64,000 bases of DNA, taken from the NCBI GenBank assembly GCA_002401485.1, contig NVTF01000002.1:4299-68298 (forward strand). Direction: 5' to 3'. The notes under the pieces were generated by a model. That model did no database searches and was not told the origin of the DNA. It worked only from the letters and a program-made list of their open reading frames with translations. Position 1 is the first letter of the stretch. The number at the start of each line of letters is the position of its first letter. Source of the stretch: Elusimicrobiota bacterium. GTDB taxonomy: Bacteria; Elusimicrobiota; Elusimicrobia; UBA1565. The translations under genes were made by a program, and so were the position numbers. Below, piece after piece: positions 4,898-22,400 of this stretch.

Positions 4898-6133
4898 GTG
4901 CCCTTCACCCTCTTCATCGCGTTTCGCTACCTCATAACAAAACGAAAGGGGCTTTTCACCATGATCACAACCGTGATCGGGGTGACCGGCGTCGCCATCG
5001 GGGTTGCGGCGCTGCTCACGACCCTCTCGGTCATGAATGGGTTTCAATCCGATATCCAGAAGAAAATTGTGGGCGCGCAGGCTCATTTGTCCATTTATGC
5101 CCGGATGAATCCCGATCGGGAGAAACACCTGAGAGAGTCGATCGAGGAAGAAGAAGAGATCATCGCCACCTCTCCCTTCGTGCTCGGCCAAGGCATCGTA
5201 ACCTTTGGAGAACGCTCGTCCGGCATCGTTCTAAAGGGGATCGATCCCCGCCAGGAATTTACCGTCAACGATCTTTCCACAAAATTAACAGCGGGAGAGT
5301 GGGCCGACCTCAAACCGGCCTCCAAAAACGGTGCCAAACCCGTCCCGGGAATAGTGCTGGGCGAAGAGCTCGCAAAAAGCCTTGGCGCGTGGATCGGTGA
5401 CGAAGTCATCCTGATTTCCCCGCAAAGCCTCGCAACCCCCATGGGAATGATCCCCGCAATGAAGCGGTTCAACGTTGTGGGCACCCTCCACACCGGTTAC
5501 TACGAATACGATAGCGCGGCCGGGTACGCGGAAATTGAACCTGTCGCTTCTTTTTTCAACACCCCCGGGGGACTTTCCGGCCTTCAGGCCAAAATTGCCG
5601 ATTTAGACCATGCAGACGCCGTCGCAAAATCCCTTCAAGGCAGGCTTGGCTGGGATTACACAGTGCGCTCGTTCACCGAGATGAATCGGACGTTGTTTGC
5701 GGCACTCAAACTCGAGAAGGCCGTGATGTTTATTATTCTCGGACTCATCATTCTTGTCGCCTCGTTTAATATCGCCTCCAATCTCGTCTTGATGGGAACC
5801 GAAAAATTGCGCGATATCGGACTGCTCAAGGCAATGGGTGCGACCCCCGGCCAAATCCGCAACATCTTCTTGTGGATCGGAACCCTCATTGGAAGCTTCG
5901 GCGTTTTTCTCGGCATCGGCTTGGGTCTGATCCTATGCTGGGTCATTGAGCGTTACCCGATTGTGGAGCTCCCCCCCGATATCTATTACCTCTCCCGAGT
6001 GCCCGTTGAGGTCAAAGCGATGGACGTCCTCGGGGTCGTTGTCTGTGGACTCACACTTGCGATCCTTGCCACCCTTTACCCGGCTTATAAGACCTCGACA
6101 GTCGACCCGATCGAGGCCATCCACTATGGCTGA
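4898..6133 (+). CDS. Lipoprotein-releasing system permease (LolC/LolE, FtsX-like)
   Basis: 411 aa in a 4-TM FtsX/MacB-like arrangement with a large periplasmic loop; N-terminus FRYLITKRKGLFTMITTVIGVTGVAIGVAAL; a lolD-like ATPase lies immediately downstream. Confidence 0.8.
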   Translation: MPFTLFIAFRYLITKRKGLFTMITTVIGVTGVAIGVAALLTTLSVMNGFQSDIQKKIVGAQAHLSIYARMNPDREKHLRESIEEEEEIIATSPFVLGQGIVTFGERSSGIVLKGIDPRQEFTVNDLSTKLTAGEWADLKPASKNGAKPVPGIVLGEELAKSLGAWIGDEVILISPQSLATPMGMIPAMKRFNVVGTLHTGYYEYDSAAGYAEIEPVASFFNTPGGLSGLQAKIADLDHADAVAKSLQGRLGWDYTVRSFTEMNRTLFAALKLEKAVMFIILGLIILVASFNIASNLVLMGTEKLRDIGLLKAMGATPGQIRNIFLWIGTLIGSFGVFLGIGLGLILCWVIERYPIVELPPDIYYLSRVPVEVKAMDVLGVVVCGLTLAILATLYPAYKTSTVDPIEAIHYG

Positions 6134-6818
6134 TCCGAGCCCGATTTTAACCGTTTCCGGCCTCAAAAAATCCTACGAACAGGCGGATAAACCCCTTGAG
6201 GTTCTACGCGGCGTCGATCTGGAAGTTCACCCGGGGGATTATATCGCGATCCTCGGCCCGAGTGGGACCGGCAAATCGACGTTATTGAACATTATGGGCT
6301 TGCTCGATCGCCCCTCGGCCGGCACACTCACAATAGCAGGACAAAATGCAGCCTCTCTTTCCGAAAATAGCCGGGCTCAAGTCAGGAACAACAAAATCGG
6401 CTTCGTACTCCAATTTGACTCACTTTTGGCGGAATTTTCAGTGCTCGAGAACGTATTAATGCCCGCTCGTATCGGGGGGCGAGCCTTGGAGCCGCTGAAG
6501 GAAAAAGCTTTTGATTTATTGAAGATACTCGGAATAGAAAGTCTCGCCGAGCGACTTCCTACGGGCCTTTCCGGAGGTGAAAAACAGCGGGCAACCATTG
6601 CTCGTGCCTTGATCAATGACCCGGTCGTTTTGCTCGCAGATGAGCCCACCGGGAACCTCGATAGACCCAATGCCGAGCTGGTATTTGGTAAAATGAAGGA
6701 GTTGACGGACACGTTGCCAGTGGCGGTCGTGATGGTCACCCACAACGAACATGCGGCTGATTACGCCTCACGACCCGTACACCTACGGGACGGCCGCATC
6801 ACCGATTTAAAGGACTAG
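6126..6818 (+). CDS. lolD: Lipoprotein-releasing system ATP-binding protein
   Basis: Walker A GPSGTGKST, signature LSGGEKQR and Walker B LLADEPTGNLD. The start is taken at the ATG at 6126 (MADPSPILTVSGLKKSY); the in-frame upstream extension to 5946 looks like an ORF-caller artefact overlapping the permease. Confidence 0.88.
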   Translation: MADPSPILTVSGLKKSYEQADKPLEVLRGVDLEVHPGDYIAILGPSGTGKSTLLNIMGLLDRPSAGTLTIAGQNAASLSENSRAQVRNNKIGFVLQFDSLLAEFSVLENVLMPARIGGRALEPLKEKAFDLLKILGIESLAERLPTGLSGGEKQRATIARALINDPVVLLADEPTGNLDRPNAELVFGKMKELTDTLPVAVVMVTHNEHAADYASRPVHLRDGRITDLKD

Positions 6819-6830
6819 CGGGGTATTCCT

Positions 6831-7724
6831 ATGAAAATTTGGATTGACGGCGAATACGTAGCGCAAGAAGACGCAAAAATCTCAGTTTACGACCACGGTC
6901 TCCTCTACGGAGACGGGGTTTTTGAAGGCATTCGCTCGTACGGCGGCTTCGTTTTCCAACTCGAAGAACACATCGACCGCCTGTATGCTTCCGCAAAAGC
7001 CATCCTCCTGACAATCCCGATGGAGCCTAAAGCGATGGCCGACCTGGTTTGCGACGCCGTCCGCACCAACGGCCTGAAAGACTCGTATATCCGCGTCCTC
7101 GTGACCCGGGGAAAGGGTGACCTCGGCCTCGACATGCGAAAATGCCCGAAGGCGAGCATTATCGTCATCGCGGATAAAATCCAGCTTTTTCCAGAAGAAG
7201 TCTACAACCGGGGCATGAAATTGATTGTGTCCCACCTTCGCCGCGTCCCCCCCGATACACTAAGCCCGGCGATCAAATCCCTGAACTATCTCAACAACAT
7301 TCTGGCTCGGGCCGAAGCCAGCCGTGCCGATTGTGATGAGGCCATCCTGCTCAATCGCGATGGATACGTCGCGGAGTGCTCAGGCGACAACATCTTTGCT
7401 ATCCGCCGAGGAAAGGTTTACACGCCCCCAGTGTACGTGGGCATCCTCGAGGGCATCACGCGCAACGCCGTCATGCATTTAGCCGAGACCAAACTCGGAC
7501 TTAAGGTTGTTGAGCAGGTCTTCACCGTCCCGCAAATGTATCGCGCCGATGAGGTGTTTGTCACGGGAACCGGAGCCGAGATTATCGGTGTTGTTGAGGT
7601 CAACGGCCGGATTATCGGCAACGGCAAGCCTGGTCCGCTGACTCAGAAGCTGATCAAGGAATTCCGCGCCTACGCGTGCTCCCCTGAAGCGGGAGCAGCT
7701 GTCTACCAGACAGCATCCGTGTAG
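6831..7724 (+). CDS. ilvE: Branched-chain amino acid aminotransferase (class IV PLP fold)
   Basis: 297 aa with VYDHGLLYGDGVFEGIRSY and class-IV aminotransferase fold motifs; catalytic Lys region present. Confidence 0.8.
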   Translation: MKIWIDGEYVAQEDAKISVYDHGLLYGDGVFEGIRSYGGFVFQLEEHIDRLYASAKAILLTIPMEPKAMADLVCDAVRTNGLKDSYIRVLVTRGKGDLGLDMRKCPKASIIVIADKIQLFPEEVYNRGMKLIVSHLRRVPPDTLSPAIKSLNYLNNILARAEASRADCDEAILLNRDGYVAECSGDNIFAIRRGKVYTPPVYVGILEGITRNAVMHLAETKLGLKVVEQVFTVPQMYRADEVFVTGTGAEIIGVVEVNGRIIGNGKPGPLTQKLIKEFRAYACSPEAGAAVYQTASV

Positions 7725-7736
7725 CGGCCCTGACGG

Positions 7737-8813
7737 TCACTCCAGTTCGACTTCGAACTCTTCGAGCATATACTCGACATCCAACTTTAGGTTGTACGCC
7801 GCATCTTCAATTTTTTTAAGCGAGGCGCGGATTTCGTTGCGAATAACCTTTTCTTTTTCTTTTGTAAGGCGCGCTGTAAGGGGCTTTTTCGCTCGCTCCG
7901 AACCGATATCACCCAACGCACGAACAACCACTCCCCGAAAACGCCGATCTTTCGCTGTAAGATAAGGGAGCAGTACTTTCGACGATTTCGCCGACCCTAT
8001 TTTTCCGATTGAGTCCGCCGCCTGCGACCGCACACGAACATCGGGATCCTGAAGAGCGTCTATTAACGGCGCGACAGCACCATCGTTTCCCCGAAATCCC
8101 AGAGCCTTGGCAGCAGCCTCGCGATCAACGGGATCACCATCCCGAAGCTGCGCCGACAGCGCCCGCAGTTCCTGCTCGGCAGTAGTGTCAATTTCGATTT
8201 GCCGCCGGGTCGTGCTGGTGCGAATACGTTTTCTTTCCAAAATGTCAATTTCTTTAATTTTTCGCTTTATGAAACTTCGGACCGGAAAACCCGGCGCGAC
8301 CAACTCCAATCCCTTGTTAAAAAAGGAACGCGACTGATCCCATACCTGCGCATCCATGGCATACATTCCCAACCCAGCAAAACCCTCAGGCGGCAGTGAG
8401 GCATCGATCGACTGCGCTTGGCGAATATCCGCGATTCCTCGCGGATTGTTCCTTAACGCCCGGACGAACCCGCGCAGCGCATAGGCGCGGCCATTATTCA
8501 CATCCGCGAGTACCGCACGGTCAAAATCCTCCTCCGCGCGTCCCATGGTATCCCAGCGATTATCCCGAATCCCACGATCCAAATACGCCATGCCCCGAGC
8601 CATATACAAACCGGGGATGTTGTCATTTAATTGGATCGCATTGCCGAAGTCTTTAATCGCGGAGCCATAGGCCCCGCGCATGCGCTTCCTCATCCCACGC
8701 CGCAGGAAGTCGTGAGCGGTAAAATTGTCATCTTCTCCTGCAGAAACAGGAATTATCCCAGCTCCAAAAAGCAGGGCCAGACAAAGACATGCGCGACTCA
8801 TTAGTCCAAGCAT
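7737..8813 (-). CDS. Secreted TPR/HEAT-repeat protein
   Basis: Signal peptide, TPR-like N-terminal half, and a C-terminal half of PBS-lyase/HEAT-like repeats (DPDVRVRSQAADSIGKIGSAK..., RFRGVVVRALGDIGSERA). Confidence 0.65.
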   Translation of the reverse strand: MLGLMSRACLCLALLFGAGIIPVSAGEDDNFTAHDFLRRGMRKRMRGAYGSAIKDFGNAIQLNDNIPGLYMARGMAYLDRGIRDNRWDTMGRAEEDFDRAVLADVNNGRAYALRGFVRALRNNPRGIADIRQAQSIDASLPPEGFAGLGMYAMDAQVWDQSRSFFNKGLELVAPGFPVRSFIKRKIKEIDILERKRIRTSTTRRQIEIDTTAEQELRALSAQLRDGDPVDREAAAKALGFRGNDGAVAPLIDALQDPDVRVRSQAADSIGKIGSAKSSKVLLPYLTAKDRRFRGVVVRALGDIGSERAKKPLTARLTKEKEKVIRNEIRASLKKIEDAAYNLKLDVEYMLEEFEVELE

Positions 8814-9185: not shown

Positions 9186-9605
9186 CTATTGGATTTCAAG
9201 ACGCTGTTTTTGCGACTCGCTCGTCTTAGGAAGGCATATTTTAAGAACCCCATCCTTATAAGAAGCCTTCGCTTCTTTCGTATTTATAACGGTCGGAAGC
9301 GTGAAGGTCCGCGAGAAGGAACCGTATCCCTGCTCGATGCGATGAACCCCTTCATCATTCTCATAATCCGTATCGAGTTTACGCTCCCCGCGGATTGTGA
9401 CCTCATCGTTGCGAAGATCCACATGCAGGTCCTTTTTCTCAACTCCAGGGACTGAAACGGAGAAGACGAACTCTGCTTCGGTTTCCTTTACATCAACCCG
9501 GGGCGTGAAACCAGCCACGCCGCCAAGCAAAGCCGGTGGATTGCGCAGCGCTAGCGGCCAAGCCCCGAACGCGCGGTCCAATGGAATCATGTCTTTGAAT
9601 GTCAT
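9186..9605 (-). CDS. Small heat-shock protein (Hsp20/alpha-crystallin family)
   Basis: 139 aa with an alpha-crystallin domain (PRVDVKETEAEFVFSVSVPGVEKKDLHVDL..., GVLKICLPK). Confidence 0.9.
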   Translation of the reverse strand: MTFKDMIPLDRAFGAWPLALRNPPALLGGVAGFTPRVDVKETEAEFVFSVSVPGVEKKDLHVDLRNDEVTIRGERKLDTDYENDEGVHRIEQGYGSFSRTFTLPTVINTKEAKASYKDGVLKICLPKTSESQKQRLEIQ

Positions 9606-9732: not shown

Positions 9733-10914
9733 TTAAAAGTCGTGCGGAGTGATAATAAACGGCAGAGTAGGAAGAATAAAAGGTTTTGAGAGGTGCAGAG
9801 CAGCAACCTTTTTAAATCCCCAATGATCAGGCTGACCCTTCGCCTGCTTGTAAAGAGCCATCGCGTCTTCGCGCTTTCCCATTGTATCTAGGACATTTCC
9901 AGCCCGAATCAAACTCGCAACGGCATAACGGCTCAACTGGCCCTTCATTTTAATAAGAGCGGCTTCACGAAAAGACTTCAATGCCAGGGTTGGTTTTCCA
10001 AGGAACCATTGGGCATGACCCAAAATCAACAATCCCTTTGCCTTTTCCAGAGCCAGATACTCCCCAGAATCGACGCGTTTAATAAACTTCACAGCATCCA
10101 CTTCCACTTCCGCGTAATGATTCGCGTACAACTTCGCACATAACTCAGCCGAATGAAGCATCGAACTATTCGGAAATGCCTCCCGAACCTCCGCCATGAT
10201 CTCAACCGCCCTTTCAGGATCCTTGGCCCCCCACATGTCGTGGGTGTAAATCTCAACGAGGGCCATCTTCGCCGTCCATTTTGAAAACCGGCCTTTTTCA
10301 GCGACCTCATTGATAAGCGCAATGCCGCGCTCGCGGTCGCCGCGCAAAACAAGCTTTGCCAGCACGCCGACAAAATGCGGATAGACGTCCGTATAATAAT
10401 CGTACATGCCTATGCCAAGCTTGGCGTCCATCAACTCGGGATCGATCTTCAACGCCCGGCGAACCGACTTCATCGAGGTCCGCGCCGTAAAATATCCCTT
10501 AATATAGCGATGACGGGTCATCAACAGGCGAGCGTAAAGGCCGTGCAGCGCCCCTCGCGTCATCCAACCCTCAGCGTCCTCGGGATGCAGCTTGACCCAG
10601 GCATCCGACACGTCAATGCCCTTCTCGATGGCCTCATGAAAGGGTTTTAGAAGCGCCTGATCACTTTGTTCACTTTCGTAAATAAATCGAAGCCAGGCCA
10701 CCGACGCGTAGCCAAAATAAGGATGCGGATGCCCGGGGACCATCTTTTCCAGCACCTCGAATTCCTTTCGCGAAGCATCAAACTCCATGCGAATCATTTT
10801 CTCCACACCCCGGTGGATATAGGCCTCCTGTTCGGGGTTGAGAAATTTTGGCTTTTCCGCTGAGGCGCCGGTCGCGCCCAGCATCAAGACGAAGGATAAC
10901 AGCGTCCGCATCAT
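9733..10914 (-). CDS. Secreted TPR-like repeat protein (hypothetical)
   Basis: 393 aa with a signal peptide (MMRTLLSFVLMLGATGASA) and a helical-repeat-like sequence; no catalytic motif recognised. Confidence 0.6.
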   Translation of the reverse strand: MMRTLLSFVLMLGATGASAEKPKFLNPEQEAYIHRGVEKMIRMEFDASRKEFEVLEKMVPGHPHPYFGYASVAWLRFIYESEQSDQALLKPFHEAIEKGIDVSDAWVKLHPEDAEGWMTRGALHGLYARLLMTRHRYIKGYFTARTSMKSVRRALKIDPELMDAKLGIGMYDYYTDVYPHFVGVLAKLVLRGDRERGIALINEVAEKGRFSKWTAKMALVEIYTHDMWGAKDPERAVEIMAEVREAFPNSSMLHSAELCAKLYANHYAEVEVDAVKFIKRVDSGEYLALEKAKGLLILGHAQWFLGKPTLALKSFREAALIKMKGQLSRYAVASLIRAGNVLDTMGKREDAMALYKQAKGQPDHWGFKKVAALHLSKPFILPTLPFIITPHDF

Positions 10915-10986
10915 CTTAAGGAAGGGTAGAAGGTTCCCTCACATAATTCAAGTGGCATCCGTGAATGGTCTCGCTACTGTAGTAGA

Positions 10987-12030
10987 ATGGCACTCATGAC
11001 AACCGACGCACCCGCCCTTCCGGATTGGGACAAACTCTCGTTCTCCCTGACGCAAACCGACACGATCTTCGAGTGTTTTGGAGACCTCGACAGCGATCCC
11101 CAATGGGATGAAGGTGCTTTTAAACCATTTGAGAACGTTAGTATCTCCCCCGCCGCAACGATTTTTTCCTACGGGCTCTCCATTTTTGAGGGCCTTAAAG
11201 CCGAACGGACCGAAGACGGAAAAATTCTGCTCTTTCGGGTCGACCGAAACGCGTGGAGATTCGGGCACTCCGCAACCCAGCTGCGCATGCTCAACTTCCC
11301 CGAGAAACGATTTATCACGGCGGTGACCGAACTCGTGCGGCGCAATGAACGCTTCATCCCTCCCGCGGGAAAAGGAACCCTCTACGTCCGGCCGACGCTT
11401 TTTGCAGATGAGCCGCAATTAGGACTTCGGACCGCACGCCGTTACCGCGTTCTTATGTATGCGTCCCCGGTGGGAGCCTACTTCTCCTCCGCGGACGCGG
11501 GCGTGCGCCTGCGCGTGCTGGAACAGGGACGGGTCGCTCCCGGCGGCACCGGATCGGCCAAAGCGGCCGGCAATTATGCCGGAAGCCTTAACCGCCGGGA
11601 ACAGATGCATGTGGAAGGTTTTGACGATGTTCTCTTCCTCGACGCCCGTGACGCTCAGTTCGCGACAGAAACGACGGGCTCCAACGTTTTTGCGAAGCTA
11701 AAGAACGGAATCCTCGTCACACCCAAACTCAACGATCAAATTCTTCCAGGGATCACGCGCGAGTCGGTGATTCAACTCGCAAAAGAGCAACTCGGACTCA
11801 CCGTGGAAGAACGTCCGCTGCGAATTGAAGAGATTCTCGGTGATGTCTCCGAACTTTTTTGCACAGGAACCGCCTGGACAGTTCGTCCGGTCCGTGAACT
11901 TCAGTACCGGGACGAAATCACTAAATTTGACGCCCCGGACGTTGCCGTGCAATTGCTTCAAAGCCTTCGCGCCATCCAATCCGGGGAAGCTCCGGACAGG
12001 TTCGAATGGATCCGAGAGGTCGCCCTGTGA
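10987..12030 (+). CDS. Branched-chain amino acid aminotransferase, long (type II / eukaryote-like BCAT) class IV
   Basis: 347 aa with YGLSIFEGLKA, TLYVRPTLF and GSAKAAGNYA blocks typical of the ~350-aa BCAT subfamily. Confidence 0.75.
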   Translation: MALMTTDAPALPDWDKLSFSLTQTDTIFECFGDLDSDPQWDEGAFKPFENVSISPAATIFSYGLSIFEGLKAERTEDGKILLFRVDRNAWRFGHSATQLRMLNFPEKRFITAVTELVRRNERFIPPAGKGTLYVRPTLFADEPQLGLRTARRYRVLMYASPVGAYFSSADAGVRLRVLEQGRVAPGGTGSAKAAGNYAGSLNRREQMHVEGFDDVLFLDARDAQFATETTGSNVFAKLKNGILVTPKLNDQILPGITRESVIQLAKEQLGLTVEERPLRIEEILGDVSELFCTGTAWTVRPVRELQYRDEITKFDAPDVAVQLLQSLRAIQSGEAPDRFEWIREVAL

Positions 12031-13154
12031 GTTCCAAACGCATCAACGCGATTCGCAAACAAGTCGACGCGTTTGACAACAGGTTGCTGAAAACGCTCGC
12101 CGGACGACGGAAAGCCGTATTGGCCCTGATTAAGGAAAAAGCCTCTTCCGACCGCCCCATTCGCGACCTGGGCCGTGAGGAAAAATTGCTCGCCCGCGTC
12201 ATCGGTGCCGGCCGGACGATCGGCCTGGATCCTGATTTTGTCCGCCGGGTGTATGAAGAAATTTTGGAAGACTCGGTTCGCGCCCAGCAGCGGCGCGCAC
12301 CGCAAGGGCGCGGCGTCATTCGCGTCGCCTTTCAGGGAATCGAAGGCGCCTACAGTGAACTCGCCGCGCGGCGCTTCTTCACCGACCGAAGCGGAAAGTT
12401 AAGCCTGTTGGGACGACCGACCTTCGACGAAGCTGTTTCCGCTGTTGATGAAGGGCATGCCGAATTCGCGATCCTCCCGATCGAAAATACGACCGCCGGC
12501 AGCATCAACGAGGTTTACGACCTCTTATCACGTTCCCGATTGCGCATCATCGGAGAGGAAATTCTCCCGGTTTCGCACTGCCTATTGGCCGTTGAAAAAG
12601 TTCCCGTCTCCAAAATCCGCCGCGTTTTATCCCACCCGCAAGCCTTGGCTCAGTGCATGCGTTTTTTAACCGGACTCTCGAATTGCACGACCGAATATTT
12701 CGGGGACACCGCGATGGCGGTGCGAAAAGTCGCTGCGGACAAAGACATTGCCCAAGCCGCCATCGCAAGCGAAGAAGCCGGCAAGCGATATGGACTGAAG
12801 GTCCTCCAACGCGATCTCGCCGATCAGAAGGACAACTTCACCCGATTTCTAGTCGTCGCCCATGACGCACCGCCGCCGCCGGCGCGGGTTCCCTGCAAAA
12901 CTTCAATTGTCATGGCGACAGCCCACAAGGAAGGAGCGCTCCTTCGCGCGTTGAACCATCTGCACGAAAGTAAAATCAATTTAACCAAGCTGGAAAGCCG
13001 CCCGGAACCGGGCAAACCGTTCCAATACCGATTTTTCATCGATTTCGAAGGACACGCAGACTTGCCCCATATTGCCGCCGCCCTCGCCAAGGTAAAAAAA
13101 GAAACGGCCTACCTTAAGATTCTCGGCAGTTACCCGGCTAGAAAACGATCATGA
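12006..13154 (+). CDS. pheA: Bifunctional chorismate mutase / prephenate dehydratase (P-protein)
   Basis: N-terminal CM region (INAIRKQVDAFDNRLLKTLAGRRKAV), PDT domain (VAFQGIEGAYSE..., ESRPEPGKPFQYRFFIDFEGH) and a C-terminal ACT domain. Overlaps the upstream gene by 25 nt. Confidence 0.88.
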   Translation: MDPRGRPVSSKRINAIRKQVDAFDNRLLKTLAGRRKAVLALIKEKASSDRPIRDLGREEKLLARVIGAGRTIGLDPDFVRRVYEEILEDSVRAQQRRAPQGRGVIRVAFQGIEGAYSELAARRFFTDRSGKLSLLGRPTFDEAVSAVDEGHAEFAILPIENTTAGSINEVYDLLSRSRLRIIGEEILPVSHCLLAVEKVPVSKIRRVLSHPQALAQCMRFLTGLSNCTTEYFGDTAMAVRKVAADKDIAQAAIASEEAGKRYGLKVLQRDLADQKDNFTRFLVVAHDAPPPPARVPCKTSIVMATAHKEGALLRALNHLHESKINLTKLESRPEPGKPFQYRFFIDFEGHADLPHIAAALAKVKKETAYLKILGSYPARKRS

Positions 13155-14119
13155 AAAATATTTTTGCTGCGGCACTGCTTCTTGCGTTCACGACAACTTC
13201 TTCTTACGCCCGATTCGCGCCGGTGCGATTAGGCTTGCGATCAACCACTCTCGTGACGGCGCCGGCTCTTGTTGTTCCCGGCACGCTTCTCGCGCAAAGC
13301 CTCACCCCAACACTTCCCTCTCTTTACGTATCGGCATTGGTGGTGCCGGCAGCGGTCGCCATAAAGAAAACGCCGATTCGAACATCGGTGCAGCGTGCAG
13401 CGGCTCCGGCCCCCCAACGTCGGAGTCCGGGCGCAGCCTCCCGCCATTGGACGGGATTTTTTGACGGAATCCAAGGAAAATCCGCGCCGACCGTTGTTGT
13501 CAACGCGGCCGACACCCCGTCACGCCCTCAGGTCGCGACGTCGGTAAAAGAAAAAGGCCTCGTGGGGCGCGAAGTCCCCGTTCCCGGCAACACCGCGCTC
13601 CAAAAACACGTCTCTTTCTTCGATCGCAACGGTGATGGAATCATTACCGTTTCCGAAACCCGCTTCCGCCTGCGCCAACTGGGATTTTCATGGACAAAAT
13701 CCGCATTTCTTTCATTCGTCATTCATGCCGGTCTCGCGAAATCGACATCCGCCTCTTGGACAGACGCGCTGCTGCTGCGCCTGAGCGTCGAAAAAATGCA
13801 CCTCGGAATTCATGCCGCTGATACCGGCATCTACGATGAACACGGCAATTTTGTGCCGGAAGCTTTCAAACGCCTCTTCGCCGATCACGCCAAGACCGAT
13901 CCTGCCTTTCTGACCGAGTCCGAGTTTCAAAACATGATCACGGCCAACGCCAAACGCCGCCCGGGAGCACTCGGCAAGTTCGCCGCCAAGCAGGAATTCG
14001 GCCTGCTCCTCGATATCGCATCCGACGGAAAGCTCGGAGAGGAGCGAACGATCAGCCGGTCCCGCATGGAAGGTTTCTACGATGGGACGCTCCTGTATAC
14101 ACTGGTCGGCGAACGTTGA
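13151..14119 (+). CDS. Secreted caleosin-like (EF-hand peroxygenase family) protein with a shared N-terminal module
   Basis: Signal peptide, then a ~130-aa Ala/Pro/Leu-rich module ending in FFDGIQGKSAPTVVVNAADTPSRP, then a caleosin-like domain: LQKHVSFFDRNGDGIITVSETRFRLRQLGF. The His and the canonical EF-hand loop D-x-N-x-D-G-x-I-x-x-x-E are both present. Confidence 0.7.
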   Translation: MKNIFAAALLLAFTTTSSYARFAPVRLGLRSTTLVTAPALVVPGTLLAQSLTPTLPSLYVSALVVPAAVAIKKTPIRTSVQRAAAPAPQRRSPGAASRHWTGFFDGIQGKSAPTVVVNAADTPSRPQVATSVKEKGLVGREVPVPGNTALQKHVSFFDRNGDGIITVSETRFRLRQLGFSWTKSAFLSFVIHAGLAKSTSASWTDALLLRLSVEKMHLGIHAADTGIYDEHGNFVPEAFKRLFADHAKTDPAFLTESEFQNMITANAKRRPGALGKFAAKQEFGLLLDIASDGKLGEERTISRSRMEGFYDGTLLYTLVGER

Positions 14120-14165
14120 CCCACCCCGCTTGACGGGGCGGGACTCACCTCGTACCCTATTCGCG

Positions 14166-15584
14166 ATGCGGACCCTATACGCCGTAATTGCACTCGCGCT
14201 GGTCAGCGCTGCCGATGCCGCTCCCTCCCGGCTTGAGACACTCTCGAAGCAAACGGACGCGCTCGTCATTGAAATCAATGCGCTCGACCGTTCCTTGCAG
14301 CTGCATTTGACGAGTTTTTCCCGGCAAGGGGCCGCGACCTCAGGTTCGACAAAAAAAGCACAAGCCTTGCGGCGTCGAACTGCGGCCCTGCTCAAACGGT
14401 GGAAGACCCCCTCTGCGGAATGGAAAAAAACATCCAAGGAACGCAGCAAACAATTCAAGGCGCAGCAACGATGGTTGACCGACTTAAACAAAAGCGTCCT
14501 TAAAGACCGCATCAAGATTCGAAAAGAGTTTGAAAAGGCGGCGGCGGCATGCGACCTTGGATCAATATCCGCGGGAATCGCCGCTCTTTGTCCGCGGGGA
14601 TGTCCTTCGAAAAAACTTATTCGCGGATACAGGCTGCCCTGCGCCCTTAAAGAACGCAAAACAGTGCTGCAGCTCCCCTTAAATCGACTTAGGTTGGAGG
14701 GCGGAAAACATCGAATAGACATCGAAGGCGGCGCGCTCAGCCTCCGGGCTCACGGTATCTACGCGCTCCGTGAACCGCTCTCGCGTTTTTGGACGGCATT
14801 TTATGCGCTCTCCATAAAATCCACCAACGCGAAAGAAATCGAAGCCCTGCGCCGCTACGCAGGTTACATACGAGAGGACTCCCCGGCGGAAACAATCGGC
14901 CCCGCCGCGCTTCAGCGGGTGATTTCGGTTTGGAATCTTCGGTCGCACGAGAACCCGGACGAACTGGAAACGGATGCCGAAACAACGGCCAAACGCGCCT
15001 ATTTTGAGATGTCCGGTGAAGCCGCTTCCGCGATTGCGGCGTCTTCCTCCTCAGGAATCCGGTCCCAACCGTCCGCCCGCGACGCGATTCGCCGCGTGCT
15101 GCGCGCGGCCGGAAGCTCGCGCGGTGTTTCCAACAGTGACGCGGAGCGCTTGCTCGCCGCCAATCGAACAACAGAAATCTCCGGTGCCTGGCCGGTTCAT
15201 TCCCTCAAGGCATCCGTCGCCTCGTTGGTCGGATCCGTGGTCGGCGCAGAGGTCTCGGAGGATGGGAATGTCGTTTTCTCTTCCTTCAAAAAACCGTACC
15301 GCGTGGTTGCGGACCCGGCAAAAGGTTCGTTTCGGGTTTGCCGCGATGCCTGCGGTGAAAACGATTTTTTGACCATCGATGGGAAGCCGCCGGTCGCGCC
15401 TGTTGTCAAAAAAGATCCACCCAAAATAATTATTAAGAAGAAGAAGAAAAAAAAGAAAAAGCGTTGGTGGTGGGGCGGTTCGAAGGACGATGAGGAGAAA
15501 GAGGAAAAAGAACCCACCGTCGTTGTAGATCCCAACGCTCCTCCGCCGCAGCCCACCTGGTTCCTCATTCAGGAATTGCAATAG
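14166..15584 (+). CDS. Secreted coiled-coil protein with C-terminal poly-Lys tract (hypothetical)
   Basis: Start placed at the ATG at 14166 (MRTLYAVIALALVSAADA signal peptide). The C-terminus is KKKKKKKKKRWWWGGSKDDEEKEEKE...FLIQELQ; the 14082 start given in the ORF table has no hydrophobic leader. Confidence 0.6.
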   Translation: MRTLYAVIALALVSAADAAPSRLETLSKQTDALVIEINALDRSLQLHLTSFSRQGAATSGSTKKAQALRRRTAALLKRWKTPSAEWKKTSKERSKQFKAQQRWLTDLNKSVLKDRIKIRKEFEKAAAACDLGSISAGIAALCPRGCPSKKLIRGYRLPCALKERKTVLQLPLNRLRLEGGKHRIDIEGGALSLRAHGIYALREPLSRFWTAFYALSIKSTNAKEIEALRRYAGYIREDSPAETIGPAALQRVISVWNLRSHENPDELETDAETTAKRAYFEMSGEAASAIAASSSSGIRSQPSARDAIRRVLRAAGSSRGVSNSDAERLLAANRTTEISGAWPVHSLKASVASLVGSVVGAEVSEDGNVVFSSFKKPYRVVADPAKGSFRVCRDACGENDFLTIDGKPPVAPVVKKDPPKIIIKKKKKKKKKRWWWGGSKDDEEKEEKEPTVVVDPNAPPPQPTWFLIQELQ

Positions 15585-15590
15585 TCCTGA

Positions 15591-16184
15591 ATGATCCATC
15601 TCTTACCGGGAATGGGCGCCACCTCGGCCATGTACGATGGCCCCTGGAAAAGCCTGCCCGATTCAAATCCGCTCGAATGGCCGACGCATCACGGGGAAAC
15701 AACAATTGCAGACGTCGCCCGGCGCATGATCGATGAACACGCGATCAGCGCCAGGGATTCGATCATCGGCAGTTCCCTGGGAGGCATCGTCGCCCTTGAG
15801 ATTCATCGTTTTCTTACCTTAAACCAAGTCATACTTGTCGGCAGCGCCGTCTCGCGAGCGGAGATCAACGGACTGCTTTTGGGCTTAGCGCCGCTGGCGC
15901 AAATAACCCCCCTGAAATTCATTCAGGTCTTGGCCGGAAAGACGCCGACCTTGATGTCGTCCATGTTTGCCGAGGTGGACAGTGACTTTATCAAGGCGAT
16001 GTGCGGCGCTGTCGCACAATGGGAAGGCTACACCGGTTCGAAAGAAAGGATCTCGCGCATTCATGGGGATCAGGATTTGATTATTGCCTGTCCGGCCGAC
16101 GCCCATGTGATCGCCGGCGGGGGGCATCTCATCGCGATCACCCATTCAGAAGACTGCGTGCGTCTCATTGAGGAATTGCAATGA
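15591..16184 (+). CDS. YqiA-like esterase (small alpha/beta hydrolase)
   Basis: 197 aa; IIGSSLGGIVA (GxSxG nucleophile elbow) and GGGHLIA resemble E. coli YqiA (IVGSSLGGYYA ... GGNHAF). Confidence 0.65.
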   Translation: MIHLLPGMGATSAMYDGPWKSLPDSNPLEWPTHHGETTIADVARRMIDEHAISARDSIIGSSLGGIVALEIHRFLTLNQVILVGSAVSRAEINGLLLGLAPLAQITPLKFIQVLAGKTPTLMSSMFAEVDSDFIKAMCGAVAQWEGYTGSKERISRIHGDQDLIIACPADAHVIAGGGHLIAITHSEDCVRLIEELQ

Positions 16185-17560
16185 GGAAAATTGCAATCCT
16201 GATGATTGCACTCTTCGCCTTGAACGTGTCCGCCGAACCGACGCAATCCCCTCGGCAGAGATGGCTTGACGCGTTTTTCCAAGCGGCGAACGAGTCCGCG
16301 CGGGTATGGCCAGGGCTCGAAATTTGGGATCGGCCGTTTCTGCTGACCGACGGGACAACCTGGAATGTCTTGTACGGACATCCAAACCCTCCCGCTAACT
16401 TCTCGCCGTTCACTTTAAGAGGACGAGACTTCCACACAAGTTCCCAACCGCCCGACTTCGAGGGTCTTAACTACAGCTACAAGTATGAACTCGGCGGCAT
16501 CGCGATCTATGCGCGCAGGGTGGAAATAGCCAACGACCTCCGCGACGGGTATCGAACCATGAACCGGGTGTTCCACAACCAATTTCATGAGTACCAAACC
16601 GTTGTACTTGCGGGGCGTGATCCCTTAAGCTCTCAACTGGGCCAACCCACCGCCTTCGATATTGCCGACGCCGATGCTGAAAACAGATTGTTAAAAGCGG
16701 CGTTAGGGGAGTCGGATTTAGAGGCGCTGCGCGACTTTATCGCTATTCGCAGCAGGACCCCCTCGCGCGCGGATCACGGGGAGTGGGTAGAGGGCATCGC
16801 CACGTATTATGATCTACGCGTATTTGAATCGGTTCGTGGAGAAGGAAGCGGAATTGCGGAAATTCTAGGAGAAATCACTAAAAAGACGGATCCCGTTCAT
16901 CGAAAAGCATCTCGTTATTATAGAACCGGCGCGGCCATTGGCTACCTGTTGGATCGTCTCGGGGCGGATTGGAAAGATCAGATTAAAGCGGGCGTACCCC
17001 CGTTTCAAATCCTGTCAGAAGCAATTTCAATGCCGGACACCGAAATCGACCGCCGCGCGGCGCGAGTTCGGTCGACACCAGAATACGAAACCGCTCTCGG
17101 CGTCATTAACGCCGAATTGGTTGAAGAAAGACGGGCCGCACGCAGCGCGCAGGAGCGCTATGATTCTGCAGAAGGCCCGCGGGTTCGCTTAATACTCATT
17201 CGTAATTCAGTAGCCGAACTACGATTTAATGCAGGCCCCAAATACGACTCCCCGAACCGGGAATACACGCTTCACACCGGCGGCGTTTTAGGACACGGCA
17301 AATCATGGGACGTGGAAATTTTCGATCGCATCTTACTGATGCGGTGGAAACACATGGCACGCGACCTGACATTTGCTCTCGGCGGCGGGGCACGGTGGAC
17401 CATAGACGGAAGAGAATGGGAACCTAGTGCGGGAGTGATCCAGGTCCGGGAAGTCGCAATCGAAAATGACAGCGTTGAGATTAGGGTCAGCGACGCCTTC
17501 ATTGAGGTCGAAGACAGCGGCATGATTACGATTTACAGCGCCGCGATCGGGAAGCATTAA
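16181..17560 (+). CDS. Secreted hypothetical protein
   Basis: 459 aa with a signal peptide (MRKIAILMIALFALNVSA), coding-like composition, and a start overlapping the upstream stop (ATGA). Confidence 0.6.
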   Translation: MRKIAILMIALFALNVSAEPTQSPRQRWLDAFFQAANESARVWPGLEIWDRPFLLTDGTTWNVLYGHPNPPANFSPFTLRGRDFHTSSQPPDFEGLNYSYKYELGGIAIYARRVEIANDLRDGYRTMNRVFHNQFHEYQTVVLAGRDPLSSQLGQPTAFDIADADAENRLLKAALGESDLEALRDFIAIRSRTPSRADHGEWVEGIATYYDLRVFESVRGEGSGIAEILGEITKKTDPVHRKASRYYRTGAAIGYLLDRLGADWKDQIKAGVPPFQILSEAISMPDTEIDRRAARVRSTPEYETALGVINAELVEERRAARSAQERYDSAEGPRVRLILIRNSVAELRFNAGPKYDSPNREYTLHTGGVLGHGKSWDVEIFDRILLMRWKHMARDLTFALGGGARWTIDGREWEPSAGVIQVREVAIENDSVEIRVSDAFIEVEDSGMITIYSAAIGKH

Positions 17561-17603
17561 CCCTCGAAATTAATAAGGAACTCCTAGGGGCCCGTTTGCT
17601 ATC

Positions 17604-18959
17604 ATGGGACTCTTGGAAGCCATCGACAAGTTTCTGTCTACTGCCGTTGACCTCGCCTGGGGCTGGCCTCTGATCGCCCTCCTCGTAGGCGGCGGCGCCT
17701 TCCTCACCCTCTATTCCCGGCTGATTCCCTTTCTCGGGTCCCGGCACGCGCTTGATATTGTACGCGGCAAATTCGACGACCCCGACGATCCGGGTCAAAT
17801 CAGTCACTTTCAGGCACTCACCACCGCTTTGGCATCCACAGTCGGCGTCGGCAATATCGGCGGCGTCGCAGTCGCCATCACCCAAGGCGGTCCCGGAGCG
17901 GTTTTCTGGATGTGGGTGGCGGCAATCGTCGGCATGGCGACGAAGTTTTTCACCTGCACCCTCGCCTCGATGTACCGAAGAGAAGACGAACTAGGCGTCG
18001 TGCAAGGCGGGCCGATGTACTACATCGAGGTCGGTCTCGGTAAAAAGTGGCGCTTCCTAGCCGTTCTCTTCTCGTCCTTCGGCCTGATCGGGTGTTTACC
18101 GATGTTCCAATCAAACCAACTCGCCGATGTTCTCAAGGGCTCCTACAACGTGCCGCCGCTCGCGGTCGGCATTGGCTGTTCCCTGATTGTCGGGGCCGTG
18201 ATTCTAGGCGGCATCCAACGCATCGGGCGCTTCACCGAAAAACTCGTTCCCTTCATGTGCGCTCTCTACATCATGGGCTGCCTTTACATCCTCGCCACTC
18301 GCGCCGGCCAAATTCCGGCCGTGCTTGCTTCGATTTTTCATGACGCTTTTACGGGGACAGCGGCCGTCGGGGGATTTGAAGGCGTCACCGTCAGCGCGGT
18401 GATCTCCATCGGCGTCAAACGCGCGGCATTCTCCAATGAAGCCGGGATCGGCACCGCCCCGATGGCTCACGGCGCGGCCAAAACCAAGGAACCCGTTCGC
18501 GAAGGGCTCGTCGCCATGGTCGGCCCGTTCATCGATACGATCATCATCTGTTCGATGACCGCCTTCGCGATTCTCTCCACCGACCTCTGGCATGCCAGCG
18601 GCGTGCAAGGCACCTCTCTTACCGCGAAGGTATTTGCCTCCGCGATGGGCTCAGGCGGAGAACTGCTCATCGCGGTGGTGGTGTGCATGTTCGCGATCTC
18701 CACCATGGTCGGCTATTCCTATTATGGAAAGAAGTGCTTCGCCTATCTCTTCGGCGCTCAGTGGGGCTTCGTGTATGAGTATTTCCTAATAGCCACCCTG
18801 ACCCTAGGCGCCGTCTGGTCCACCGGCAGCCTCGTCAACCTTCTCGACACCGCCTTCGCCCTCATGGCCTTCCCCAACATGATCGCCGCCCTGATGTTGT
18901 CGCCAGTAGTCATGGCCGCCGTCCACGACTACTTCAAACGCCAAAAACTTCTGGCATAG
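17604..18959 (+). CDS. agcS: Sodium:alanine symporter family transporter
   Basis: 451 aa, multi-TM; QALTTALASTVGVGNIGGVAVAI is the signature region of the AGCS family. Confidence 0.88.
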   Translation: MGLLEAIDKFLSTAVDLAWGWPLIALLVGGGAFLTLYSRLIPFLGSRHALDIVRGKFDDPDDPGQISHFQALTTALASTVGVGNIGGVAVAITQGGPGAVFWMWVAAIVGMATKFFTCTLASMYRREDELGVVQGGPMYYIEVGLGKKWRFLAVLFSSFGLIGCLPMFQSNQLADVLKGSYNVPPLAVGIGCSLIVGAVILGGIQRIGRFTEKLVPFMCALYIMGCLYILATRAGQIPAVLASIFHDAFTGTAAVGGFEGVTVSAVISIGVKRAAFSNEAGIGTAPMAHGAAKTKEPVREGLVAMVGPFIDTIIICSMTAFAILSTDLWHASGVQGTSLTAKVFASAMGSGGELLIAVVVCMFAISTMVGYSYYGKKCFAYLFGAQWGFVYEYFLIATLTLGAVWSTGSLVNLLDTAFALMAFPNMIAALMLSPVVMAAVHDYFKRQKLLA

Positions 18960-19451: not shown

Positions 19452-22400
19452 GTGACAAAGGTCCTCTCGATTTGTCTTTCGGCCGCCTTGTTGTTCGCCC
19501 CAGCTCCTGCTGCGGCCAAGGTGCTGCGTTCGGCTCCCAGCAATGCCCCGACGTCATACGTGATTGGAGGAATGCCGGGGACCCTGTCGCATTCAAACAG
19601 CCTCCCCAGCCAACTCTTTCCTTTAGGAAGCACACTCACCGGGACGCTACCGACACTCTCGGTCCTTCCTACGCTAACCCCTCAGTCCAAGGTTGGAGTC
19701 CAAGCAATCGCGCCGGTTCTGAAGGCTGCTCCCAATCTCATCCGACACCAAGCCGCAGCCAAACGCCCGCCGACCACGCTCGAAACAGTTCAGACCTTCA
19801 CTAAGGAAGCCGCACCGCAAAAGAAGGGCGCCGCCGCCGCGAGTCTGCATCTCTTTGACGGACTCCAGACGAGGGTCGGTTCCCCAGTTGGCCTAGCGGT
19901 CAACGCGGCGGATGCCGCCCAAACTCCTTCACGTCCGATCTTCCACGTACCGGTGCACTCGTTTACTCTCGACAACGGACTTCAGGTCGTCGTTCAGCCC
20001 GATCACTCCAATCCGGTGGTGGCCGCAGCCGTCACCTACAAGGTTGGTTCCCGCAATGAAACGAAAGGCCTCTCCGGGTTAGCGCATTTCTTCGAACATT
20101 TGATGTTTGAGGGAACGTCGAACATGAAGCCCAACGAACTTTCAAATTTGATTTCCAACTACGGCGGCAATGACAACGCCCATACGATGGAAAACAACAC
20201 GGCCTATCATGAGATTTTTCCGAAGTCGCTGCTGAGGACCGTGCTTTGGGGGGAAGCCGACCGGATGAGAAATCTTTCTCTGACGCCGCATGTCGTGGCC
20301 AATGAAAAGAGCGTCGTCATTCAAGAGATGGGCCAAAGCGTCGAAAATCAAGCCTACGCCAAGGGCCACGTCGAGGGATTTCCGAGCCTCGCTTACGAAA
20401 AATGGATTAACCAGCATCGGGTGCTTGGTTCCCGTGAAGACGTTCGCGACGCGAGCCTTGAAGAAATCGAAGCGTTTTACAAGGCTCACTACGCGCCCAA
20501 CAACGCTGTCTTAACGCTGGTCGGCGACGTGACCCTCGCGGAAGCCAAAGAATTAGCCCAAGAATATTTCGGCGATGTGCCGCGGCGCAACGTCGCCCCC
20601 GCCCCCGACGTCTCAGAAGGTCCGATCGAAGGCGTTCGCAGGGCTGTTTTTGAAGACCCGCTGGTAACAACTCCTCTGACCATGGTCGGCTGGCGTCTGC
20701 CCCCCATCGGAACGCGGGATTACTGGGCGCTTAGCCTGTTGTCGCGAATTCTCTCCGGGGACGCGGGGAGTGTTCTCTATCAGAAACTCGTGAAGGAAAT
20801 GAAAATGGTCTTGGCGCTTGGCATGGCCGCGCCGCATTCCAACTTCTCCCATTTCGACGCGTCCGGACCACATCTATTTTCCGCCCTCTTCCAGCCGAAA
20901 GGAGACACCACTGTCGACTCAATCATCGAAGTAATCGACCGGGTACTTGCCGAATTCGCGAAAACCGGCCCGACCGAAAAGCAGCTGGCGGGAGCCAAGA
21001 CCTTCGCAGAAGTTCTCTGGATCGATGCGTTTGAGGATATGCGGGACCGTGCAGTCAATCTCGGATCCTACGCCGCCCTGATCCGCAACCCAGCCAATCT
21101 TCGCCACGATTTGCGCCGCATGTTGTCGATTAAGCCCGACGACGTCCGCCGGGCGATCAAGAAGTGGCTGCTCGGCACCGGTCGCGCCATCGCCGAAATT
21201 GTCCCAACGGATAAACCGCGCCAGGAACTCGCCTCTCAGGAGACAGAGGGCAATCATCCGGCGCAACCGGAATTTAATCCAACCTCGCGTCCGCCGCAAC
21301 CGGAAGGCCCGGGTGCATTCAAGTCTCCCGAAACAGTGGAGAAAATACTTCCCAACGGACTGCGCGTTGTCATGATCAGCGACTCACGCATGCCGACAGC
21401 GGAATTCAAACTTCGTTTTCCCGCAGGCACAAGCAACAGTGCTGCGAAATCGATTGCTGAAATCGTAGCCTTACCTGAGTTGGTGACCAAAGGCACGCGC
21501 ATGTTCAACGACTCCTCAATCGCAACAAAGTCCCGCGGGCTCGGCTGGAGCTTGAGAGCGGAAGGATTTGCAGAATCAACAGTCGTGCAAGGCGGCGGAC
21601 TTTCCCGGAATCTCCCCGAATTCCTCGAACTCTTATCCGAAGTGATTCAAGGCGCTTCCTACCCGGCGGATCAAATCAGCCTCTGGCAGGACGAGCAACT
21701 GGAAGAATTGATAGGCCGCAGGAAAGACATCGAGGCCCTGTCGGAAGATGTATGGCTCGACGAAATCTTCGGTGATCACGCCTACGCCCTGCGGGAGCCC
21801 AATGAAGAACAAACGATGGGCCTGACGCAGTACCGGTTGCGGCGGCTGCACGATTGGGTCTTTCGTCCCGATGGAGCGGTTCTGACCTTGGTCGGCGACT
21901 TCGATCCCGAAGAGATGGCCGGCATCATTGAGAAAAAATTCGCGGGCTGGAAAGGGCGCATGAGGGACGAAACCGTCGCGCCCGTAAACGACACAGGACC
22001 CAGCAGCATCGCCTTGGTCGACCTTCCCGGTGCGACCCAAGCCTCAATCGCCCTCGGAAAAACCATGGACATCGGCCCCAAACATAAAGACTGGGCGGCC
22101 TTCCACCTCATGAATCAAATCCTCGGCAACGACACGGGACGATTGCAAAACAACCTTCGCCGCGACCACGGCTATACCTATGGGGCCTACTCCCGCTTAT
22201 TTAATTTCAAGAAAGCGACGGCCTTTCAGGCAACGGCACAAACAGCCAACGCCGTTACCGGTGCGGCGATTACCGAGATGTTTAATGAGATTAACCGCCT
22301 GCGCGACGAAGAAGTGCCCGTTGAATTGCTGGAAGCGGCGAAACGTTTCTTAATCGGGCAGCAGCAGATCGCGCTCACCAAGCTGCACGGCATCGTCATA

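Follow-up and report, generated by a model that had tools for sequence, protein, structure and literature searches.

A gene for a caleosin-family protein, predicted to be exported and apparently free of a lipid anchor, is present in a 64,000-nucleotide stretch of Elusimicrobiota DNA, hereafter called the window (contig NVTF01000002.1 of assembly GCA_002401485.1, positions 4,299 to 68,298 of the forward strand). The open reading frame (ORF), at positions 13151-14119 of the + strand, is present as described in a sequence-only reading (an earlier annotation made by a model from the nucleotide letters), and its product is a 100% match to P0001, named 'hypothetical protein COB53_00505 [Elusimicrobia bacterium]' at NCBI. 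The protein is a genuine member of the caleosin family (PF05042). By analogy with plant and fungal caleosins, its favored interpretation, held with moderate confidence, is that of an exported, soluble Ca2+/heme-b peroxygenase-like protein of the periplasm or cell surface. The sequence-only reading had proposed a bacterial caleosin-family EF-hand protein with predicted export, and this view holds on all testable points, namely the PF05042 match, the His and EF-hand residues, the predicted signal peptide and the leader. The window caleosin is not a new kind of system. The features on which the analysis relies are the following, with amino acid (aa) positions referring to the protein.

13151-14119, + strand: caleosin-family gene, 322 aa plus stop codon, ATG start, matching PF05042
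13151-13210, + strand: predicted Sec signal peptide, aa 1-20, MKNIFAAALLLAFTTTSSYA, with heuristic cleavage before RF
13211-13570, + strand: predicted disordered Ala/Val/Pro/Thr-rich leader or linker, aa 21-140, delimited by pLDDT, composition and constraint
13364-13531, + strand: leader core, aa 72-127, KKTPIRT…AASRHWTGFFDGIQ…VVNAADTPSRP
13589-14104, + strand: caleosin domain, aa 147-318, from the Pfam alignment
13598-13687, + strand: caleosin hallmark LQKHVSFFDRNGDGIITVSETRFRLRQLGF, encoded within the ORF
13607-13609, + strand: His153, counterpart of the first invariant heme-coordinating His of CLO/PXG proteins (LQKH motif)
13622-13657, + strand: canonical EF-hand Ca2+ loop DRNGDGIITVSE, 12 residues, aa 158-169 (D158-E169)
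13658-13810, + strand: counterpart of the plant/fungal 'proline knot' segment, with predicted amphipathic helices, proline-free
13811-13813, + strand: His221, counterpart of the second invariant His, in IHAADTGIYD (KHGSDSGxYD in plants)

Family membership is supported by a strong and near full-length profile match. The PF05042 search suggested along with the sequence-only reading gives 134.2 bits (E = 5.5e-39, for a gathering cutoff of 27 bits) and aligns aa 147-318 with profile positions 3-169 of 170, so that the caleosin assignment stands. The identity as a caleosin, and not as a generic EF-hand protein, follows from this score, from the sub-cutoff match to the EF-hand_6 profile PF13405 (17.5 bits, for a cutoff of 25) and from the calmodulins, which in a sequence search of the Protein Data Bank (PDB) match just the ~35-aa loop region (E ~0.002-0.02). 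A calmodulin-like protein, considered as a candidate, was ruled out on the same evidence together with the presence of a single canonical loop. No NCBIfam family matched the protein.

Caleosins are diagnosed by a single EF-hand and by two invariant heme-coordinating His residues needed for peroxygenase activity (PMC5957377, PMC6309107). The His residue at a heme-ligand position and the canonical loop pointed out in the sequence-only reading are both present and align with those of plant caleosins. In the loop, D1, N3, D5, G6, I8 and E12 are all in place, and among the columns invariant with plant 'peroxygenase' sequences are the LQKH and HxxDxGxYD His residues and the FFD-N-DG-E positions of the loop. 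Conservation was compared over 226 caleosin domains, with 174 in a bacterial clan and 52 in a eukaryotic clan, the latter being the clan that holds all labelled plants and a fungus. The column of His153 is occupied by His in 170 of the 174 bacterial-clan domains and in all 52 eukaryotic-clan domains, and that of His221 in 173 of 174 and 50 of 52, respectively. Conservation is just as strong, in the two clans alike, at loop positions D1, N/D3, D5, G6, I8 and E12.

The fold was modelled with AlphaFold2 using a 44-sequence alignment. In the model, an N-terminal helix (aa 2-20) is followed by a region with no confident structure (aa 22-137, pLDDT <50) and by a compact helical domain (aa 141-322, pLDDT mostly >90). 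The counterpart of the proline knot (aa 170-220) is modelled as helices 181-199 and 203-207. It contains no Pro and has a maximum 19-residue Kyte–Doolittle mean (KD19) of 1.06, against a median maximum of 1.72 and 4 Pro for the same segment in the eukaryotic clan; averaged over the bacterial set, the segment is lower in hydrophobicity and has fewer Pro than its eukaryotic counterpart. Hydropathy and Pro counts over aa 170-220 revealed no hydrophobic, proline-rich lipid-binding or transmembrane (TM) segment. Because this segment is amphipathic, proline-free and of low hydropathy, the caleosin domain looks soluble, and its sequence points to a domain of the caleosin family and not to a 'caleosin' of lipid droplets as cell biologists use the word. 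Of the lipid-droplet peroxygenase background invoked in the sequence-only reading, the family assignment is thus kept and the lipid-droplet label is given up for this protein, its anchoring proline-knot segment being missing.

A structure search with the model returned only weak PDB matches (E 5e-3 or worse), all to four-EF-hand ligand-binding proteins. The best of these neighbors, namely coelenterazine-binding protein (2hps), juvenile hormone diol kinase (7pjd), aequorin and Streptomyces CabD (3akb), are all-helical, EF-hand-derived globules of a size similar to that of the model, but TM-scores do not exceed 0.39, identities are 13-20% and none of them is a heme protein. The likeness would therefore concern the fold class only and not family membership. 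Plant L-type caleosins/peroxygenases (CLO/PXG; Arabidopsis CLO4-type and Cicer 'probable peroxygenase 5' P0004) belong to the same PF05042 family, with 35-44% identity over the 170-aa domain. They share with the window protein the LQKHVSFFDRNxDG EF-hand/His motif, the second-His motif HGSDTGxYD and the C-terminal YDG(S/T)L(F/L) and, like them, the window protein has no N-terminal H-domain. Differences lie in the proline-knot segment (4-5 Pro and KD19 ~1.4-1.9 in the plant proteins), in the bacterial Sec signal peptide and 120-aa disordered leader predicted in the window protein, and in location, predicted to be extracytoplasmic for the window protein whereas plant L-type caleosins reside on the endoplasmic reticulum or on lipid droplets. 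C-terminal kinase phosphorylation motifs, a regulatory feature of eukaryotes, are considered not meaningful for an exported bacterial caleosin.

The N-terminus, which reads MK, then NIFAAALLLAFTTT, then SSYA before R(F), follows the n-h-c scheme of type I signal peptides, and positions -3 and -1 are occupied by S and A. Orthologue P0002, with 60% identity, has kept this organization (MKNIFASMLLIAFSATLSHA before RF), and the signal peptide announced by the sequence-only reading is thus retained as a prediction of export, probably by the Sec route. In the leader, synonymous sites are saturated relative to P0002 while aa identity is 55% in the alignable part (dN/dS ~0.15), the best-conserved parts being the signal peptide and the core motif. 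Since aa identity is kept while synonymous sites are saturated, comparison of the two genes indicates that the long N-terminal region is translated and under purifying selection. A Porin_O_P outer-membrane protein is encoded in the window, which points to a diderm envelope, so that an exported caleosin would reach the periplasm or beyond.

The leader (aa 21-140; A 15%, V 13%, P 11%, T 10%) is not restricted to the caleosin. The same layout, consisting of a signal peptide, of 80-170 aa rich in Ala, Pro, Thr, Leu and Val, and of a conserved core, is common to three otherwise unrelated proteins of the window, the other two being listed below.

19452-22619, + strand: M16 peptidase, 1055 aa, with Peptidase_M16 and M16_C hits; signal peptide, low-complexity stretch and LFDG…VNAAD…TPSRP leader
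28716-29918, + strand: 400-aa protein, function not assigned, with the same leader (RLFDGTGNHRGLVNAADAQ); no Pfam hit

The 'shared N-terminal module' of the sequence-only reading is therefore real, its core being found in the leaders of these two proteins as well. The core consensus is KKxPxR…AA(S/R)…(L/F)FDG-x(5-12)-VNAAD, with the P, FDG and VNAAD columns invariant across the three leader-bearing proteins and P0002. A fourth protein, encoded by a 562-aa ORF (29938-31626, + strand) that adjoins 28716-29918, carries a weaker version of the leader (VYDGS). Among caleosins, the extended FDG…VNAAD core is found in the window protein and its orthologue only. In the sub-clade made of P0002, P0009-P0014, P0018, P0020 and P0026, the caleosin domain is in every case preceded by a signal peptide, an A/P-rich stretch and an xFDG motif; except for P0002, the members are relatives retrieved by exhaustive search, with 45-54% domain identity and the motif 'xFDGxG'. 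The leader is covered by no model of Pfam or NCBIfam, and a search of the core alignment against 5.8 billion proteins gave 52 word-sharing candidates, none with E <=10, the power of this search being low for so short a motif. The leader may act as a spacer or tether, or as a sorting signal or pro-region, specific to this lineage.

Caleosin domains turn out to be dispersed among bacteria. A phmmer search over 1.84 billion cluster representatives gave 606 clusters at E <=1e-3 and 304 at E <=1e-10. In addition, GTDB was scanned with two exact peptide patterns in one genome per species, which yields a lower bound: at least 48 of 185,579 species, from ~8 phyla, have a confirmed caleosin. These comprise another Elusimicrobia metagenome-assembled genome (MAG), Vulcanimicrobiota, Acidobacteriota, Sericytochromatia, Oligoflexus tunisiensis, many Myxococcota (including 13 complete Sorangium genomes) and alpha-, beta- and gamma-proteobacterial MAGs. 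Some bacterial members already bear the NCBI name 'caleosin family protein'. The statement in the sequence-only reading that bacterial homologues are rare is thus correct as a frequency and not as to spread, given these ~8 phyla, the names at NCBI and the published cases in Sorangium and Legionella. Among the papers searched, none surveys or characterizes bacterial caleosins.

The N-termini of bacterial caleosins fall into four classes, with a Sec signal peptide, a lipobox, a single TM anchor or none of these. By a simple hydropathy rule, an N-terminal export or anchor segment is present in ~45% of bacterial-clan and 17% of eukaryotic-clan sequences. Other exported forms (Elusimicrobia L004/P0157/P0158; lipoproteins of Sericytochromatia, Myxococcota and Kofleriaceae; TM-anchored forms of Vulcanimicrobiota) resemble the window protein in having an export or anchoring signal before the domain and in retaining all hallmark residues, but have short linkers or lipoboxes, the long A/P-rich xFDG leader being limited to the window protein's sub-clade. 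The caleosin-like proteins of Sorangium cellulosum (PMC5957377), likewise bacterial members of the family with both His and the EF-hand retained, differ further: they have no signal peptide, have an acidic/Gly-rich N-terminus, are probably cytoplasmic and occupy a different part of the tree, the window protein lying in a separate leader-bearing clade. As a side observation, the plant 'peroxygenase 4/5' proteins P0004, P0005 and P0007, which are the named plant sequences nearest the bacterial domain, have signal-peptide-like hydrophobic N-termini, e.g. MNTMNSFQIRLPLLISFFYIFLAIATAQ.

The immediate neighbors of the caleosin gene are two co-directional genes.

12006-13154, + strand: pheA, encoding the P-protein (chorismate mutase CM_2/prephenate dehydratase PDT/ACT), with Pfam and NCBIfam hits
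14166-15584, + strand: downstream secreted protein, 472 aa, function not assigned, with 55% full-length identity to the gene following the caleosin in the independent metagenome contig L001

The TGA stop of pheA overlaps the ATG of the caleosin gene as ATGA (4 bp), as the sequence-only reading had noted. Contig L001, which like the window contig is unambiguously bacterial, is syntenic and encodes a TPR protein, a class IV aminotransferase, pheA, the caleosin, a 453-aa secreted protein and a Na/Ala symporter; compared with it, the window carries two additional genes ahead of the symporter, coding for an alpha/beta hydrolase and for a 459-aa protein of unassigned function. A functional link to pheA and aromatic amino-acid synthesis was considered and rejected, since the adjacency is kept in L001 only, there with a 226-bp gap between the two genes, and other relatives differ. 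In more distant leader-bearing relatives the caleosin gene has a TetR regulator as its neighbor (L052) or is flanked by a gene for a 1347-aa uncharacterized protein and by TlyA (L054). Linkage being confined to the closest relative, placement after pheA is probably incidental local gene packing; the co-transcription suggested in the sequence-only reading is thus kept as an overlap and not as a functional coupling.

The downstream protein (14166-15584) has no Pfam or NCBIfam hit and is the sole neighbor, besides pheA and the aminotransferase, that still adjoins the caleosin in the orthologous locus. Its C-terminus consists of a poly-Lys run, WWWGG and an acidic tail (KKKKKKKKKRWWWGGSKDDEEKEEKE); because this tail is conserved at the protein level in L001, an assembly artefact is ruled out for the corresponding A-rich run of DNA. 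The ORF tool lists the gene from 14082, but its true start is likely the internal ATG at 14166, which removes an apparent 38-nt overlap with the caleosin gene. An opposite-strand ORF (13712-14722, - strand) was taken as a spurious shadow of the Pfam-supported genes of the + strand. A promoter and terminator scan of positions 10500-17800 gave counts no better than shuffles. Across 50 bacterial caleosin loci, no neighboring family recurs between phyla, the sole multi-phylum cluster being a generic hybrid histidine kinase.

Other observations on neighborhoods concern single clades or distant genes. In Oligoflexus tunisiensis, an ORF of the HSP20 family of small heat-shock proteins adjoins the caleosin (L018, 6628-7188, - strand), and a homologue from the same BLAST cluster lies ~3.5 kb upstream of the window caleosin (9189-9605, - strand); with two cases, this is probably a coincidence. 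The window also contains a fatty-acid desaturase gene (PF00487; 42092-43261, + strand), located ~28 kb from the caleosin with no sign of linkage, and one giant ORF of 5213 aa (43436-59077, + strand). In Polyangiaceae, Labilithrix and related organisms (L043-L045, L047, L049 and L050), a ~1300-aa Ser/Thr kinase-AAA_16 protein is encoded in six caleosin neighborhoods, its gene ending ~15 nt before that of a signal-less caleosin in L043; this may be a clade-specific regulatory pairing in myxobacteria. In gamma- and beta-proteobacterial MAGs (L017, L020, L021, L035, L037, L039 and others), the N-terminal tail of the caleosins is basic and ends in LPRTLKARSR, and a tandem-CBS-domain protein is encoded directly upstream in 8 loci. 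Finally, bacterial contig L057 has two caleosin paralogues (6001-6906 and 7406-8278) in one co-directional cluster, interleaved with two small ORFs (150 and 164 aa) that have no Pfam hit. Two genes separate the first paralogue from a multi-EF-hand protein encoded ~3.4 kb upstream of it.

A mechanism can be proposed for the exported peroxygenase-like protein. The Sec signal peptide would carry it across the inner membrane, and the disordered ~120-aa leader, used on at least two other secreted proteins, would serve as spacer, tether or sorting/pro-region. The C-terminal 180 aa would fold into a compact, soluble caleosin domain. By analogy with characterized plant and fungal caleosins, its single EF-hand would take up one Ca2+, and His153 and His221 would coordinate a b-type heme; the abundance of Ca2+ outside the cytoplasm is consistent with a structural role of the EF-hand. 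Organic or lipid hydroperoxides would act as oxygen donors (ROOH being converted to ROH) and a co-substrate would be epoxidized, hydroxylated or sulfoxidized. Because the lipid-droplet/membrane hairpin is missing, the site of this chemistry would be the periplasm or the cell surface. Plausible roles include the handling of peroxidized envelope or environmental lipids or of other hydroperoxides, and the net effect would be the reduction of hydroperoxides in the envelope or the surroundings of the cell.

Several points weigh against this interpretation. The signal peptide was judged by a heuristic rule (n-h-c layout and -3/-1 residues), and heme and Ca2+ binding is predicted, for this as for all bacterial caleosins, from conserved residues. 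A Sec-exported heme-b protein must acquire its heme outside the cytoplasm. To our knowledge, no caleosin structure has been solved, hence there is none against which to check heme and Ca2+ geometry, and no neighboring gene hints at a substrate. Moreover, the leader has a second moderately hydrophobic stretch (aa 56-71, KD19 ~1.4) and, were it membrane-spanning, the caleosin domain would face the cytoplasm. This topology is given low weight because the stretch contains one proline, is modelled as coil, falls under the usual TM threshold of 1.6 and is deleted in orthologue P0002. It is one of two ways in which the protein might not be exported, either with the signal-like helix and aa 56-71 forming a membrane hairpin that leaves the domain cytoplasmic, or with a downstream start, for example the in-frame GTG at codon 138, that gives a Sorangium-like cytoplasmic caleosin. 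Retention in the cytoplasm is rather improbable. It would agree with the presence of that GTG, with the peak of 12-15-residue hydropathy of the leader around aa 56-70 and with the many bacterial caleosins that have no signal peptide (Sorangium, Acidobacteriota and beta/gamma-proteobacterial MAGs), but P0002 keeps both the signal peptide and the FDG…VNAAD core despite the loss of aa 56-71, the constraint on the leader indicates that it is translated, and the leader also stands before an M16 peptidase, whose class is typically periplasmic when a signal peptide is present. The main rival accepts export and questions the chemistry: an exported Ca2+-binding protein of caleosin fold would have a structural, Ca2+-buffering or ligand-binding role (for a lipid or hydrophobic small molecule) and no peroxygenase activity, its His residues being kept for structural, other-metal or ligand reasons. 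This possibility, although unlikely, draws on the multifunctionality of caleosins, whose Ca2+- and lipid-binding roles are described separately from catalysis (PMC5957377), and on the finding that no heme-handling or redox partner gene lies nearby. The nearest solved folds include ligand-enclosing four-EF-hand proteins (coelenterazine-binding protein and juvenile hormone diol kinase), a weak structural likeness compatible with both readings. What speaks for catalysis is that both His are at least 97% conserved across bacteria and eukaryotes with 35-45% identity, the pattern expected of cofactor ligands, and that the flanking motifs LQKHxxFFD and HxSDTGxYD are conserved too.

A distinct question is whether a bacterial caleosin could have come recently from a plant, an alga or a fungus, or be eukaryotic contamination of the MAG. 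The bacterial caleosins of Sorangium and Legionella have been published as isolated events of horizontal gene transfer (HGT) from eukaryotes (PMC5957377, PMC7542358), the family itself has been proposed to have arisen in LECA, the last common ancestor of eukaryotes (PMC6309107), and the named word-index matches of the window protein are mostly plant 'peroxygenase 4/5' proteins. Nevertheless, recent acquisition or contamination is very unlikely here. The gene lies inside a 68.6-kb bacterial MAG contig, overlaps pheA by 4 bp, is syntenic in an independent metagenome contig and has the GC content of its surroundings, which is uniform over the region. Its nearest relatives are bacterial or metagenomic, with 80% domain identity to P0002 and 47-54% to others, against at most 44% to any eukaryote. 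In a distance-based neighbor-joining (NJ) tree of the 226 caleosin domains with 200 bootstraps, a single split parts all sequences of known bacterial context from all labelled plants and fungi in 166 of 200 replicates (83%), which argues against recent transfer from these eukaryotes. The window protein groups with P0002 and P0008-P0013 (54% bootstrap), beside the other Elusimicrobia clade. Support for the deep branches is poor: only 29 of 200 bootstraps return the exact 52-leaf eukaryotic clan, there is no support for any bacterial group as sister to the eukaryotes (4 of 200), and the NJ tree gives neither the root nor the direction of an ancient transfer. Of two ambiguous long-contig members that were checked, P0189 proved to be on a eukaryote-like contig and in the eukaryotic clan, and P0143 on a bacterial contig. 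A broader scenario is put forward tentatively and with rather low confidence. Caleosins would be an old, often extracytoplasmic bacterial family of Ca2+/heme peroxygenase-like proteins, from which eukaryotes would have taken one lineage and later added the lipid-droplet anchor; the window protein would be a soluble exported form of ancestral type, and its leader an undescribed, lineage-specific sorting or pro-region.

Bacterial caleosins being already annotated and mentioned in the literature, what is new here is a member of the family that has a leader, lacks the lipid anchor and is predicted to be exported. Many bacterial phyla contain caleosin domains in which the Ca2+ and heme motifs are intact; nearly half of these domains come with export or anchoring signals, and bacterial caleosins are more widespread than the literature states. 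Their breadth and predicted export challenge the account based on isolated HGT and a LECA origin, and allow a proper phylogenetic test of where the family arose. The window protein would provide a soluble and probably easy-to-express version of a family without a solved structure, and it suggests that bacteria may have a hydroperoxide-dependent oxygenase chemistry in the periplasm.

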